A stretch of DNA of 64,000 nucleotides from Nitrosopumilaceae archaeon (GTDB lineage: Archaea; Thermoproteota; Nitrososphaeria; Nitrososphaerales; Nitrosopumilaceae), in NCBI GenBank assembly GCA_965200155.1, contig CBDATR010000034.1, forward strand, positions 1-64,000, in the 5' to 3' direction. Each line of letters begins with the position of its first letter. Positions within the stretch are counted from its first letter, which is position 1. The notes below the pieces were generated by a model, which had not been told where the DNA came from, ran no database searches, and worked only from the letters and a program-made list of their open reading frames with translations. The position numbers were made by a program, and so were the translations under genes. Of this stretch, positions 4,129 through 62,070 are shown piece by piece.

Positions 4129-4250
4129 CGTGTGAGAGTATTGGAAGCATACATGTCACGCACCATAGAAGAAATACGAAATCACATACAAGATTTCCAA
4201 ATTATTAGAAAATATGTAAATGAATTGGAAGAGACATTAGAAGAAAAACA
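4129..4250 (+). pseudogene. Fragment of the IS66 transposase N-terminus between two MITEs
   Basis: RVRVLEAYMSRTIEEIRN... matches the ORF at 8677. Confidence 0.85.
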
Positions 4251-4451
4251 GTATGAGTTTACCTGTGTCTAAATTTACGCATAACTGAGTGTGAGTTCAC
4301 CTGTGTCTAAATTTACGCATAACTGATGGAACAGGTTGTTCTAGTTAATGTGATTTGTGCATAAGATTCCGGAAGACGTGAACTCATACATAACTGATCG
4401 CGACCGTTAATGTGATTTGTGCATAAGATTCCGGAAGACGTGAACTCATAC
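4251..4451 (+). mobile_element. MITE variant B (4289-4389) inserted into MITE variant A
   Basis: The inner copy is flanked by the 8-bp TSD ATAACTGA. Confidence 0.9.
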
Positions 4452-4494
4452 CTTATTTTTCGTAGATTATAATAACAAACTAGAACACATTTTG

Positions 4495-8587: not shown

Positions 8588-10280
8588 GTATGAGTTCACG
8601 TGTTTTGATCATTCACTAAGATATAGATTGGTATGGCAATATTTTACTTAAATACCAAATTTGCAATAAGAATCTAATGAGAAGACGCCGGTCCTATAAG
8701 GAATTGGAACTGGAAAATAAACTTCTTCAGGATACCCTTGCGTCTATCAAGAAAGATATTGAGGATTACAAGAAAGATCTTGCACATTACAAGGAACGTG
8801 TGAGAGTATTGGAAGCATATGTGTCACACACCACAAAAGAAATACGAAATCTCACACAAGATTTCCAAATTATTAGGAATTATGTAAGTGAATTGAATGA
8901 GAAATTAGAAGAAAAAGACAGGAAAATTGCGGTACTCACAACGCGACTTAAATATTATGAAAATGCTCACTCGCCACCATCCCTTCAATCCCTCCAGTAC
9001 AAGAAGCGAAAACAGGAGGAACAGAAGCGAAAACAGGGAGATAATAAGCAACAGACAGAAGCCAGTACGAAATCAGCCAAAAAGGCTGGCGCTCAAAAGG
9101 GACACAAGGGGGTTTCCCGTTCCCACAACCCCGGCAGAGTAGTGCATCACACCTTTGAGTACACACCAATATGTGAGTGCGGCAATATGATGACAAAAAT
9201 TGGTTGGAAACAACGACACATAACGGAATTAATACCAGCCAAAATAGAGGAGACCCTTCATGTGATAGAAATGGCTGCGTGTGGGTGCGGCAAAAAACAA
9301 CTGGCCCCAGCAGCGGGCGTCCCAAAGAGTGGTAGTTTTGGGGTTCAATTATGCGGTGCCATCACTGCATTACGCGCAGAAAAGATTCCAATAAAACGCA
9401 TACCTGTAATTTCGAAGGATCTCTTCGGCCTGAATATATCTGTGGGTGCGGTAAACAACATAATTGCCAGGGCCGCCGATGCATGTGAATCATTTATGGA
9501 AACAATTCATGAAAATATAATAAAATCACCCAGCATTCATGTGGACGAAACTGGTATATCACTGGCGGGTAGGCGTGGCTGGGTATGGGGGATGCGAGCC
9601 GAAGAGTGGATGATGTCCATATATGACAAAAGTAGGAGTTCAAATGTAGTGAACAAATACCTGAACGGTTACCAGGGAGCGATAGTAACGGACAGGTACG
9701 TTGTGTACCGCCGGTTTGATGACGGTGGGAAGCACCAGTTGTGTTGGGCGCATTTATTGCGCGATACCCAGGCATTACATGCAGGATTCTATATTGATCC
9801 CGGTGCTCAGGACGCCCGGATCAAACTTGACAACGACCTGAAAGGATTGTTCCGGAGCGCACGGGAATCCCTGAATCACTGCGGGCCGTCCGCGCAATTA
9901 CGACACTCATTTGAGACAGGAGCAGATGCATCAGTACTGTGATGTTAATGATACTGAACTACAAAAGAAGGTAAAAGGATTGAATAAGGCCATACCATGC
10001 ATGTTCGTATTCTTAGAATATGACTGTGTAGAGCCCACCAACAATCCAGCGGAGCAGTGGAACCGGTTCTGATACGCAGTGGTATTCCGCAAGATTAGTG
10101 GCCAGATAAAAGGTGGTGAAAGGGCAATGCGCCGCATGTCTACATTCGTATCATGCGTTCAGACATGGAGGGCTCAGGGCCTTTCTGTAATGAACGAGGT
10201 TGCTGCCAGAATGCAGTTATAATTAAAAAAACTGGGATGCATTCTATCTTATTATGTGATCAAAACACGTGAACTCATAC
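8588..10280 (+). mobile_element. Full-length single-gene IS66-family element; transposase 8677-~10222 is split by a frameshift and a further lesion
   Basis: 24-bp TIR. Coiled coil, GAQKGHKG, CECG..CGCG zinc finger, HVDETG, VTDRY, QLCWAHLLRD, PTNNPAE. Confidence 0.92.
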
Positions 10281-19365: not shown

Positions 19366-20404
19366 TGTCAGTCAATAGTACAAAAAGTAAGTCCGCTTAG
19401 GATCCGGCGTACAGTAGCTGACTATTTCATTGCACAAGCCAGATGGTAAAGAGAATAACAGAGAAATCAAGACAAAAGAGGCGTTGCCACAACCAACATA
19501 GCTCAAGACCTGAAACAAGGCACGTACGAAGATTGTGAACCAGAGAACGGGAACGACTCAAGATGGGCAGGCCCATGATACCAATCACCGCCACCCAGAT
19601 ACGAATGGTAACTGAAGCATACAGCAAGGATCCCGCCGGAGTAGTACGTATTGCAAAGAGGCTTAGACAGAATTACAATATATCGCGCAGTATATCGCAT
19701 AATGAAAAAGAACGGTACGGCAGGATCATCACCTGCAAAGTCAGAGTGGGTACGCTATGAGCGTAAATATTCCAATGCAATGTGGCACTGGCATGTCATG
19801 AAAAGATGAGCGCTTCAAGGGACTGAATCTCATAGATGATGCATCTCTTTACAGGAGAACAGATCCGAGCCATGGTAGAACGGCGCTTCAAGGGACTGAA
19901 TCTCATAGATGATGCATCTAGGTGCATCGTCGGGGCGGCACTATTTGAGCATGCAACCTCAGAGAATGTCGCTCTATTACTGAGACTGGCAATGAAACGA
20001 TTCGGCGCCCCTGCATCTTGGATAACGGCGCGTGTTTCGTAGGACAATAAAAGGGCAAAAAGAACTGGAAACCCACTATTCTAGGAAGAACTGCTGGATC
20101 AAGACATCATACTAATCAATTCCAGGCCATACCACCCGCAGACAAATGTCAAACTGGAGCGCTTCTACAGAACGATTGAGGACGAGGGGACTCTTATTTA
20201 AGAGTCCAACGAGATATGGCATTATGACAGTCTCCGGGATTATGTTGACTACTACAATGAGAGAAGGTTGCACTTCTCACTGGATAGATAACGGCGAAAC
20301 GCCGCTTCAGGAATAAAAAGGCGACCCAAACAATTAGGGCAAATGATGCAAAATGGATGGAGCGAGATACCAATTACTAGCGGACCGACTTTTCATACAT
20401 TACA
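19366..20404 (+). mobile_element. IS481-family element type A, degenerate transposase
   Basis: TGT...ACA ends with ~30-bp imperfect TIR (..GAAAAGT..GTCCGCT). WVRYERKYSNAMWH, DDASR, PYHPQTNVKLERF. Confidence 0.85.
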
Positions 20405-20420
20405 GATAACCCAACCATAC

Positions 20421-20521
20421 GTATGAGTTCACGTCTTTCGGAATCTTGTGCACAAATCACATTAACTAGAACAACCTGTTCCATCAGTTATGCGTAAATT
20501 TAGACACAGGTGAACTCATAC
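20421..20521 (-). mobile_element. IS66-related MITE variant B (101 bp)
   Basis: TIRs; core TAGAACAACCTGTTCC; no TSD. Confidence 0.9.
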
Positions 20522-25129: not shown

Positions 25130-25522
25130 TTGGTGCTTGACACAAACAGTGTTCTGGCCGCACTGGCTGGGCAGGATGTACAGTACACTCTCCAGTCTGA
25201 TGCCGGGACTTGTGACATAAATGATGTGACCATACAGGAGACAGAAACTCCCGTACGGGGGTCCATGGCCAGGGGAAATGTCTACGTAGAGGAGTCCCGG
25301 TCGTACCGCATATCAGGCAACGTACATGCGGGTATTGCCTTGTCTCTCTCTGATACCATGTTAGGCCCCAACCCTACCTTTGGCGGACTGACTATATTGG
25401 CCCGTCACAAATCAGGTACAACTAGAATATCCGGCAGCCTGCTGTCCATGGCTCGCACTGGCGATACTGCCCGCCTGTCCATAGCTGTTATATCTGTAAT
25501 GTATGAAAAGTCGGTCCGCTAG
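25130..25522 (+). CDS. Hypothetical protein; last codons and stop supplied by an IS481 end
   Basis: 130-aa ORF with host-like codon usage, reading into the TIR at 25495. Confidence 0.65.
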   Translation: MVLDTNSVLAALAGQDVQYTLQSDAGTCDINDVTIQETETPVRGSMARGNVYVEESRSYRISGNVHAGIALSLSDTMLGPNPTFGGLTILARHKSGTTRISGSLLSMARTGDTARLSIAVISVMYEKSVR

Positions 25523-26461
25523 TCATTGGCATCCCGCTCCGTCCATTTTGCATCATTTGCCCTAATTGTCTGGGTCGCTTTTTTATTCCTGAAGCGGCGT
25601 TTCGCCGTTATCTATCCAGTGAGAAGTGCAACCTTCTCTCATTGTAGTAGTCTAAATAATCCCGGAGACTGTCATAATGCCATATCTCATTGGACTCTTA
25701 AATAAGAGTCCCCTCGTCCTCAATCGTTCTATGGAAGCGCTCCAGTTTGCTATTTGTCTGCGGGTGGTATGGTCTGGAATTGATTAGTATGATGTCTTGA
25801 TCCAGCAGTTCTTCCTTGAATAGTGTTGGTTTCCAGCTTTTCTTGCCCTTTTATTGTCCTACGAAACACGCGCCGTTATCCGAGATGCAGGGGCGCCGAA
25901 TCGTTCTATCGCCAATCTCAGTAATAGAGTGGCGTTCTCTGAGGTTGCATGCTAGAATAGTGCCGCTCCGACTATACACCTGGATGCATCATCTATGAGA
26001 TTCAGTCCCCTGAAGCGCTCATCTTTTCATGACATGCCAGTGCCACATTGCATTGGAATATTTACGCTCATAGCGTACCCACTCTGACTTTGCAGGTGAT
26101 GAGACTGTCGTGCCGTTCTTTTTCATTATGCGATATACTACGCGATATATTGTAATTCTGTCTAAGCCTCTTTGCAATACGTACTACTCCGGCGGGATCC
26201 TTGTGATATGCTTCAGTTACCATTCGTATCTGGGTAGCGGTGATTGGTATCATAGGCCTGCCCATCTTTACTCGAGTCGTTCCCGTTCTCTGGTTCACAA
26301 TCTTCGTACGTGTCTTGTTTCGGGTCTTGAGCTATTTTGGTTGTGGCAACGCCTCTTTTGTCTTGATTCCTCTGTTGTTCTCTTTACCATCTGGCTTGTG
26401 CAATGAAATAGTCAGCTACTGTACGCCGGATCCTAAGCGGACTTACTTTTCGTACTATTGA
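25495..26461 (-). mobile_element. IS481-family type A, degenerate copy 2
   Basis: Reverse-complement match to 19366-20404. Confidence 0.85.
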
Positions 26462-37004: not shown

Positions 37005-38044
37005 TGTAATGTATGAAAAGTCGGTCCGCTAGTCATTGGCATCCCGCTCCATCCATTTTGCATCATTTGCCCTAATTGTCTGGGTCGCCTTTTTATTCCT
37101 GGAGTGGTGTTTCGCCGTTATCTATATCCAGTGAGAAGTGCAATCTTCTCTCATTGTAGTAGTCCACATAATCCCGGAGACTGTCATAATACCATATCTC
37201 ATTGGACTCTTAAATAAGAGTCCCCTCGTCCTCAATCATTCCATGGAAGCGCTCCAGTTTGCCATTTGTCTGCGGGTGGTATGGTCTGGAATTGATTAGT
37301 ATGATGTCTTGATCCAGCAGTTCTTCCTAGAATAGTGGGTTTCCAGTTCTTTTTGCCCTTTTATTGTCCTACGAAACACGCGCCGTTATCCGAGATGCAG
37401 GGGCGCCGAATCGTTTCATTGCCAGTCTCAGTAATAGAACCCGGTATTTCCATGATTGCGTATGGCCAGCAGATTATCTGGCGCCGAATCGTTTCATTGC
37501 CAGTCTCAGTAATAGAACGGCGTTCTCAGGTTGCATGCTCAAATAGTGCCGCTCCGACTATACACCTGGATGCATCATCTATGAGATTCAGTCCCTTGAA
37601 GCGCTCATCTTTCATGACATGCCAGTGCCACATTGCATTGGAATATTTACGCTCATAGCGTACCCACTCTGACTTTGCAGGTGATGATCCTGCAGTACCG
37701 TTCTTTTTCATTATGTGATATACTGCGCGATATGTATTATGTCTAAGCCTCTTTGCAATACGTACTACTCCGGCGGGATCCTTGCTGTATGCTTCAGTTA
37801 CCATTCGTATCTGGGTAGCGGTGATTGGTATCATGGGCCTGCCCATCTTTACTCGAGTCGTTCCCGTTCTCTGGTTTACAATATTCGTACGTGTCTTGTT
37901 TCAGGTCTTGAGCTATTTTGGTGGCAGCAACGCCTCTTTTGCCTTGATTCCTCTGTTATTCTCTTTACCATCCGGCTTGTGCAATGAAATAGTCAGCTAC
38001 TGTACGCCGGATCCTAAGCGGACTTACTTTTCGTACTATTGACA
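37005..38044 (-). mobile_element. IS481-family type A, degenerate copy 3
   Basis: TGTAATGTATGAAAAG...CGTACTATTGACA. Confidence 0.85.
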
Positions 38045-61201: not shown

Positions 61202-61820
61202 ATAAAATGCCCTGTCATAATATGATGTAACCGTTTGTGTCGCTCCGAATTGCTTTCATGACACAAAATTCGGTAACCACAAGCTCGAAGCGGTAGGTGA
61301 TAAACCCCACCAGCCCTAACGTATGCTGTGATTGTAAATGTCGCGCAGTGGGATAACAGGATTTAGTCACTACCTTGGTGGCACATTAGGAAAAATACTT
61401 GGGTGACCTAAACGATTACCAGTATGATTAAACCAGTGGTTGTTCTTGGAGTCGATCCCGATCTTTTTGAGCAAGTATGTCATCGTTCTGCTCAATTAGC
61501 GTGTCGTTCTGCTTTGAGTGATGCTTTGCATAGTCAATTAGCGTATTTAGCCGAGAAGCGCTGGTATTCAATGCGTTGAGCATTTCTAATTGCATGTCTC
61601 CCAAGATTATCTTGAATATGGTGAATTCTCCAGTGGCAGCAGTATATTTCACTTGCATATCATCTATTTGTACAGGTTCTTCCAATTTGTTTATGGCAGC
61701 AATGAGTGACTCTATGTACTGTCTTTCACCCTCGCATATGATTAATACGGATTCGTCCTCAAGGTTCTTCACACTACCTTTCAGCCCAATTTCTTTCGCC
61801 ACATTTTTAACACTATTGCG

Positions 61821-61912
61821 GTATGAGTTCACGTCTTCCGGAATCTTATGCACAAATCACATTAACTGTAGCGATCAGTTATGCGTAAATTTAGACACAG
61901 GTGAACTCATAC
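61821..61912 (-). mobile_element. IS66-related MITE variant A
   Basis: TSD CTATTGCG. Confidence 0.95.
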
Positions 61913-61971
61913 CTATTGCGGAGTCCCACCCCCTGAACCTTTCCGGAGACTTGGATTGTGGCTCTTTCTTG

Positions 61972-62070
61972 GTATGAGTTCACGTCTTCCGGAATCTTGT
62001 GCACAAAAGAACCGGTTCTTTAACTGTCGCGATCAGTTGTGCGTAAATTTAGACACAGGTGAACTCATAC
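61972..62070 (-). mobile_element. IS66-related MITE variant C
   Basis: TSD CTTTCTTG. Confidence 0.95.

Follow-up and report, generated by a model that had tools for sequence, protein, structure and literature searches.

What placed a 36-nt piece of DNA between two exact copies of a 37-bp sequence inside a degenerate insertion sequence (IS) of a Nitrosopumilaceae archaeon? The arrangement lies in the first 64 kb of contig C34 (hereafter, the window), part of a 2.38-Mb, 51-contig metagenome bin (G000) to whose contigs all C-numbers below refer. A sequence-only reading of the window had proposed off-target spacer acquisition by Cas1-Cas2 or, alternatively, insertion by an undescribed integrase. 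Here, we find that the unit is very probably an ectopic spacer integration made by the type I-G adaptation module native to this archaeon, the Cas4/Cas1 fusion and Cas2 of its CRISPR-Cas locus. The small-subunit (SSU) rRNA of the bin scored 1437.6 bits against the archaeal model and 1093 against the bacterial one, an archaeal AmoA was found, and the window sequence is present in sponge-metagenome runs; we therefore take the organism to be a sponge-associated ammonia-oxidising archaeon. The unit and the IS copies of the window are as follows.

19810..19846, no strand assigned: first copy of the duplicated target, 37 bp and exact (36 bp if its final T belongs to the insert)
19847..19882, no strand assigned: spacer-sized insert of 36 nt, copied from a Type ISP restriction-modification gene that this genome has in several copies
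19883..19919, no strand assigned: second copy of the duplicated target, an exact match to the first
19373..20405, plus strand: degenerate IS481-like copy bearing the unit, 1033 bp including the 73-bp unit, with its ends read
25495..26460, minus strand: sister IS copy in which sites A and B (see below) are both empty, site A standing single at 25982-26018
37005..38041, minus strand: sister IS copy in which site A is empty (37568-37604), with a second ectopic unit elsewhere

Is this an insertion, and how exactly can its borders be drawn? The 37-mer occurs at 19810-19846 and again at 19883-19919 on the plus strand, flanking a 36-nt filler (19847-19882) that has no second copy within the window; 100 shuffles indicated that no 37-mer match is expected by chance. 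The same site, here called site A, is single in the two sister copies, at 25982-26018 (minus strand, two mismatches) and 37568-37604 (minus strand, one mismatch), and direct reading found both sisters continuous through it and filler-free. The match search and the reading of copies thus bear out the arrangement as it had been described. The claim of a 37-bp duplication holds for the exactness of the two copies; the boundary itself is ambiguous by one base, as a T also precedes the donor sequence, and it is no worse a fit to take the duplication as 36 bp and the insert as 37 nt. Those values equal the native repeat length and the commonest native spacer length. The unit is not a functional CRISPR array, as its two copies are local IS sequence unrelated to the native repeat and no leader was identified beside it. 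The host element is in decay: all three window copies represent one degenerate IS of ~960 bp, for which the IS481 family NF033577 was the top match of a 223-aa fragment from a sister copy (55.6 bits, below the curated cut-off), and the copy that bears the unit has a weak rve match and only short open reading frames (ORFs). None of the IS copies examined keeps a long frame.

The filler had been taken for foreign DNA, which proved wrong. In BLAST searches of all fillers against the genome, with other copies of the units themselves left out, 35 of its 36 bases were found at C24:11206-11241 and at C24:487856-487891, and C22 and C9 hold three further partial matches. Every one of these matches lies inside a multi-copy, broken Type ISP restriction-modification gene (Pfam Type_ISP_C). 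This gene is present in about five copies (C24:9001-14000, C24:487 kb, C22, and C9), of which the copy examined, at C24:9001-14000, is split into two ORFs (708 and 239 aa). The gene has been the source of two distinct ectopic fillers, ~250 bp apart.

Does the unit stand alone? All contigs of the assembly, which is 87.6% complete, were scanned for closely spaced direct repeats with mismatches allowed, and the native array, satellites, and protein repeats were set aside. The scan yielded 70 units representing 65 distinct site/filler events at 48 distinct target sites, counts that vary with the chosen thresholds and with the removal of paralogous copies; six more loci, in which the repeat-plus-filler block is itself duplicated two to four times, are outside the count. 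Duplications across the 70 units span 34-40 bp, with 36 bp in 23 and 37 bp in 32 (55 of 70 at these two lengths), and fillers span 32-39 nt in all of them. The two copies are mismatch-free in 49 of the 70. Isolated exact repeat pairs at most 300 bp apart gave the same picture, numbering 14 at a length of 36 bp and 15 at 37 bp, with 0 to 2 at each length from 29 to 35 bp and 1 to 2 at 38 to 40 bp. Among the 65 events, the period is 71 bp in 4, 72 in 28, 73 in 18, 74 in 8, 75 in 6, and 78 in 1. The length distribution is thus tight genome-wide, as spacer acquisition had been expected to make it. The units do not behave as copies of a transposon or miniature inverted-repeat transposable element (MITE), since they share no common inserted element, comprise 65 distinct site/filler combinations, and have fillers that in 31 events are copies of ordinary genomic loci.

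Two side observations belong to the census. At C24:352098-352298, two adjoining ectopic units have duplicated targets that overlap by 16 bp; the second integration therefore used a staggered neighbouring site and not the same borders. Contigs below 12 kb (e.g., C2, C4, C6, C26, C32, and C40), ~170 kb of sequence, have 35-42% GC versus 45-51% in the large contigs and bear microsatellites and satellite repeats; they resemble DNA of the host or of some other foreign source that ended up in the archaeal bin. No events were found on them.

How do these dimensions compare with those of the organism's own CRISPR locus? The genome has a sole array (C9:71011-92014), made up of 288 repeats with a length of 36 nt, and 287 of these are identical. 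Its last repeat is degenerate, which places the leader at the opposite end. Native periods are 71 (16 cases), 72 (84), 73 (101), 74 (63), 75 (15), and 76 bp (4), with one each of 70, 78, 80, and 93, and spacers are 35-39 nt in 279 of 287. The genome holds one match to Cas1 and one to Cas2, both directly upstream of the leader and free of internal stops: a Cas4/Cas1 fusion ORF of 549 aa (Cas4 at residues 14-194, Cas1 at residues 225-503; hereafter Cas4/1) and a Cas2 of 91 aa. The opposite flank of the array encodes the type I-G set, namely a Cas3-extension protein, Cas3g, Csb2, and Csb1; Cas8g/Csx17 (TIGR04113) was not found in the genome, although that profile matched no control genome either and is uninformative. 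The comparison with native lengths that had been called for therefore comes out clearly, as the lengths of ectopic duplications and inserts match those of native repeats and spacers.

Within the native array, spacer 161 repeats spacer 160 in full, the first 20 nt of spacer 62 are also those of spacer 61 (itself 57 nt in length), and several further pairs overlap by 14-30 nt, as if from common sources. Near the cas genes, past an IS5 fragment, C9:100.7-105.8 kb carries anti-phage-associated DUF1156 and DUF499 genes, all far below curated cut-offs, with the DUF499 gene split into two ORFs.

Where do the inserts come from? A near-full-length donor was found elsewhere in the assembly for 31 of the 65 events, and 22 of these donors are 100% identical to the filler; the remaining 34 fillers have no donor in the assembly. 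Only five donors share a contig with their unit, the nearest being 36 kb away. Not one of the 287 native spacers has a donor locus in the genome. Their only match outside the array is that of spacer N58 to an ectopic filler on C25, which share 26-28 nt as if both had come from overlapping pieces of one foreign source. Exact scans of viral contigs with the filler core common to N58 and with two donorless fillers gave no matches.

A TTN-type protospacer-adjacent motif (PAM; TT at -3/-2, or the mirrored AA on the other side) borders 9 of 25 single-copy donors versus a background of 12.4% (binomial p = 0.002), a signal that is real but partial; the donor of the unit at 19810-19919 itself lacks TTN. 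A filler origin and a shared PAM had been named as things to look for: genomic donors exist and some carry TTN, while the viral scans, run with three other filler sequences, returned nothing. Fifteen of the 25 single-copy donors lie on C10 (28-479 kb), which makes up 22.7% of the genome (p = 7e-5); their positions are scattered over the contig and fall on either strand. Enrichment of target sites is not seen on C10. C10 may be a replication-related hot region for spacer capture. For 12 of 26 cases, homology to the donor continues on a given side past the filler and 1-5 bases into the adjoining repeat, and because of such short extensions, of the kind that chance border matches give, some duplications seem longer than 36 bp.

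What directs the choice of target? Target sites resemble the native leader plus repeat slightly, at a mean of 16.25 matches over 46 positions versus 15.19 for random windows (Mann-Whitney p = 1.2e-4), and an expectation-maximization (EM) alignment of orientations gave a total information of 5.55 versus 4.30 +/- 0.17 in random windows. Among 4- to 6-mers in the targets, the best value was p = 2e-4 among 512 5-mers, which was lost on multiple testing. Some positions are nonetheless used again and again. Site A is single in 75 of 77 IS loci and filled in two, the copy at 19373..20405 and C24:245716; the latter filling was found by the mismatch-tolerant repeat scan, its two site copies having diverged and hence gone unscored by the pattern search. 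Of 85 copies of the IS481-like element, 5 are filled at a second position, site B, each with a filler of its own. The events at site B agree in one border; the distance to the other is 35-36 bp in four of them and 38-39 bp in the event of the window. That event, found by a repeat search of the window, is a second unit of like geometry in the third IS copy, with a 39-bp exact duplication around a 39-nt filler.

37402..37440, no strand assigned: second event, first copy of the 39-bp target at hot-spot site B, exact duplication
37441..37479, no strand assigned: second event, 39-nt insert, 100% identical to C10:243524-243562, with TTC flanking the donor
37480..37518, no strand assigned: second event, second target copy, exact duplication

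The donor of this second event lies within a DegT/DnrJ aminotransferase gene.

A third position, site C, belongs to a second IS family with 66 loci. It is single in 39 copies, and most of the others have two, three, or four site copies around spacer-sized fillers. Two old fillers have been copied with the IS to many loci, and four more unique fillers occur in single copies; in both cases in which a lineage with the oldest filler gained more, the later fillers stand on the same side of it. A subfamily of about a dozen loci, including window 8737-8794, has a doubled site that is instead a filler-free 21-bp internal tandem duplication, an event of a different kind. Another repetitive element of the window, a palindromic-ended MITE of ~92-109 bp at 20413-20521, recurs at 4250-4462 and 61820-62000 and has many genomic copies, some of them tandem or with rearranged halves.

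The adaptation genes have been struck as well. Between cas4/1 and cas2 stands a 148-bp neo-array with two spacers, for which a 37-bp segment across the cas4/1 stop codon served as the repeat; the orthologous junction in the relative G006 has a single copy of the segment and a gap of 10 nt. The 10 kb upstream of the array, its leader side, contain five events where 0.27 would be expected (Poisson P = 1e-5); the 10 kb downstream contain none.

Could some other process have made these units? Another integrase, casposase-like or undescribed, that inserts short DNA with a ~36-bp target duplication would account for orientation-blind insertion and for a PAM at only 9 of 25 donors, both of which are atypical of canonical adaptation, and such a second enzyme could be missing from an incomplete assembly. 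Yet there is a single Cas1-family match in what was assembled, the duplication and insert lengths mirror the native array, one filler overlaps the source of a native spacer by 26-28 nt, and events cluster just upstream of the array. We regard a second integrase as very unlikely, and the alternative that had been put forward is not needed. Templated insertion during DNA repair, by template switching or microhomology-mediated replication and with no integrase involved, would explain why fillers are copies of genomic DNA and might be read from the donor homology that runs into adjoining repeats. Those extensions are, however, as short as chance border matches, every donor sits either on a different contig or 36 kb or more away, TTN is enriched at donors, and 34 of the 65 fillers have no donor in the assembly; moreover, lengths are tight and a repeat-length duplication flanks every insert. 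A repair origin appears just as improbable. Broad length distributions and nearby donors with microhomology, which would have spoken against spacer acquisition, were thus not what the genome held.

It is hardly credible that the unit is an artefact of assembly or binning, even though the sequence is a 51-contig metagenome bin and public contigs from four runs of four studies end within the highly repetitive IS, none of them bridging the 37-bp repeat. An assembler cannot produce 70 precise 36- to 37-bp duplications around pieces of other contigs with which no junction words are shared. The complete, one-contig genome of G006 has a like unit with a filler that recurs at another position of the G006 genome, and a 5072-nt public contig, present in runs of two studies, follows the unique left flank into the IS with zero differences from the window. 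Depth over the filler is accounted for by its multi-copy donor; the public contigs neither confirm nor refute the junction, and a 40-nt junction word had no exact match in metagenome contigs, a collection that may omit records close to this genome.

Several observations weigh against ectopic integration by Cas4/1-Cas2 and should be set beside the evidence for it. The PAM borders 9 of 25 donors only, although Cas4/1 systems are reported to select TTN efficiently. The PAM-defined orientation agrees with the orientation more like the native leader-repeat in 4 of 9 cases only, and two spacers of one neo-array carry the PAM on opposite sides. There is no strong target motif, with no position above 0.3 bits and no k-mer significant after multiple-test correction, which leaves the exact reuse of some IS sites without explanation. 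Duplications are slightly more often 37 bp than the native 36 bp, and the second window event has 38-39 bp. None of the public contigs mentioned above bridges the unit, and Cas4/1-Cas2 is the presumed catalyst on grounds of sequence. Off-target Cas1-Cas2 spacer acquisition, as first suggested, nevertheless has strong support from the tight, native-like lengths, the intact cas4/1-cas2 pair, the distant donors, and the partial TTN signal.

How, then, would ectopic integration by Cas4/1-Cas2 proceed? The complex would load a ~36- to 37-nt fragment of the cell's own DNA, here from the Type ISP gene, with the chromosome often serving as the source. It would then, on occasion, carry out one strand transfer on each strand of an IS481-like copy, with ~36 bp between the two, in place of the leader-repeat junction, which the targeted DNA may resemble only faintly. 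Repair of the two single-stranded gaps would duplicate the 36-37 bp between the attacks and leave the repeat-filler-repeat arrangement. The same process would have occurred at least 65 times in this genome, and the survivors lie mostly where little harm follows, be it a dead IS copy, the end of a gene, or an in-frame position. Self-derived spacers in the true array would steer the interference complex to the chromosome, an autoimmune outcome, and would be lost. Ectopic self spacers would be tolerated where insertion is harmless, one likely reason being that the flanking duplicates are not the native repeat, so that no guide RNA is expected. Geometry, donors, cas genes, hot spots, and the contrast with the native array are observed here, whereas the catalysis, the order of steps, the silence of the units, and the part played by selection are inferred.

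What have the insertions done to coding sequence? The period is divisible by three in 35 of the 65 events versus 100 of 287 native periods (p = 0.002). This excess may reflect selection for an intact reading frame, or it may equally reflect a one-base difference in the trimming of ectopic inserts. Eleven units lie in reconstructed ORFs of at least 200 aa, most of them within 50 codons of an ORF end. A count of long ORFs broken by units was set aside for having overstated the damage, as the reconstructed ORFs have mostly end-proximal units. At C10:229607, for instance, the unit swaps out no more than the 5 C-terminal residues of an amidohydrolase that 9 of 9 relatives in the genus have conserved, and another adds 24 in-frame residues to a 590-aa protein of no known family.

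Do related genomes have such units? Cas4/1 is present at 59-66% identity in four genus relatives, and a fifth (G009) has fragments of the gene only; a search of genome contigs outside the genus returned 7 distant loci at 38-51% identity in unrelated phyla. The arrays read in four of these five relatives have periods of 70-74. The three that were read in the transcribed sense or its complement have a 36-nt repeat with ATTTCCG and CATTGAAG at its borders, like the native repeat here, and the array repeat of G009 has the same CATTGAAG end. We scanned 20 segments of 20 kb from each of G006, G005, and G009, or 15-18% of each genome, by the procedure used above.

G006 (complete, one contig): 1 candidate per 400 kb, clear, with a 34-bp duplication, a period of 72, and a second copy of the filler 490 kb away in G006
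G005: 1 candidate per 400 kb, doubtful
G009 (broken cas4/1): 3 candidates per 400 kb, doubtful, with periods of 66-70
This genome, five random samples: 7, 7, 10, 14, and 14 candidates per 400 kb

As far as samples can tell, ectopic integration seems to be present in the genus and about ten times more visible here. The high density could stem from greater off-target activity, perhaps tied to the neo-array that separates cas4/1 from cas2; it could equally stem from weak selection in an IS-laden symbiont genome.

Is the mechanism new? Its kind is already known from the laboratory, and it is the natural scale that is unusual here. Nivala, Shipman and Church reportedly described in 2018 (Nat Microbiol 3:310) a non-canonical spacer integration that gave rise to neo-CRISPR loci in Escherichia coli over-producing Cas1-Cas2. 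Papers that cite such work recount off-target integration seeding new loci in Cas1-Cas2-over-producing E. coli (PMC7054753, PMC11788318, PMC6698737, PMC9456107, bioRxiv 10.1101/148544), and, in the portions available, one of them calls the evidence for natural off-target integration, from two other species, "circumstantial" (bioRxiv 10.1101/148544). As those accounts relate it, the E. coli case is alike in placing spacer-sized DNA outside the array, in the repeat-length duplication, and in the formation of new repeat-spacer-repeat units; it concerns a type I-E system under forced expression in the laboratory, whereas the events here are natural, belong to an archaeal type I-G system, number at least 65, and are in part borne by IS elements.

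Closer to the biochemistry, Pyrococcus furiosus Cas1-Cas2 carries out paired integration in vitro, one repeat length apart, at repeat-like non-CRISPR sites of a plasmid, and by the accessible text of that study partial resemblance to the repeat suffices and neither orientation nor attack order is strict (PMC6698737). That system, as described there, differs in being studied in vitro and in having 30-bp repeats and a clear border-base preference, while the targets here have weak repeat likeness and no outstanding border base. For the type I-U (now I-G) Cas4/Cas1 fusion of Geobacter sulfurreducens, efficient selection of a TTN PAM is reported in the available sections (PMC6547450). The fused adaptation gene and the TTN PAM are the same here, and the native array looks canonical, with 36-nt repeats and no self spacers; the difference lies in the ectopic units, which have TTN at 9 of 25 donors and draw on the chromosome. 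"Ectopic spacer acquisition" has also been described within the arrays of Streptococcus thermophilus (PMC7999890), where integration likewise occurs away from the leader-proximal repeat. There, as far as the accessible text goes, an internal CRISPR repeat is entered, whereas the targets here are not CRISPR repeats. Our search of the literature on neo-CRISPR loci, off-target integration, and the CRISPR systems of sponge Thaumarchaeota found no report of large-scale natural ectopic integration, with subscription journals and supplements outside its reach. As far as that search shows, no earlier description exists of ectopic integration in an archaeal type I-G setting, of natural events in this number, of a predominance of self-derived inserts, or of IS-borne mini-arrays that grow.

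What does this mean for the organism? We lean towards the view that its type I-G adaptation module acts across the whole genome as a permanent insertional mutagen, with effects some ten times more visible than in the sampled relatives, and that it would have placed pieces of the organism's own genes at at least 48 sites, made a 24-residue in-frame protein insertion, and seeded neo-arrays in insertion sequences that are spread by transposition and still acquire spacers, a natural and ongoing birth of CRISPR arrays on mobile DNA. As a data set, the genome also provides natural events by the dozen along with their empty sites, hot spots, and known donors, and it may serve questions of how an integrase recognizes targets without a leader, what adaptation costs the host genome, why self spacers are lost from real arrays, and how arrays originate. 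CRISPR adaptation can, by this account, reshape coding sequences and travel on insertion sequences.

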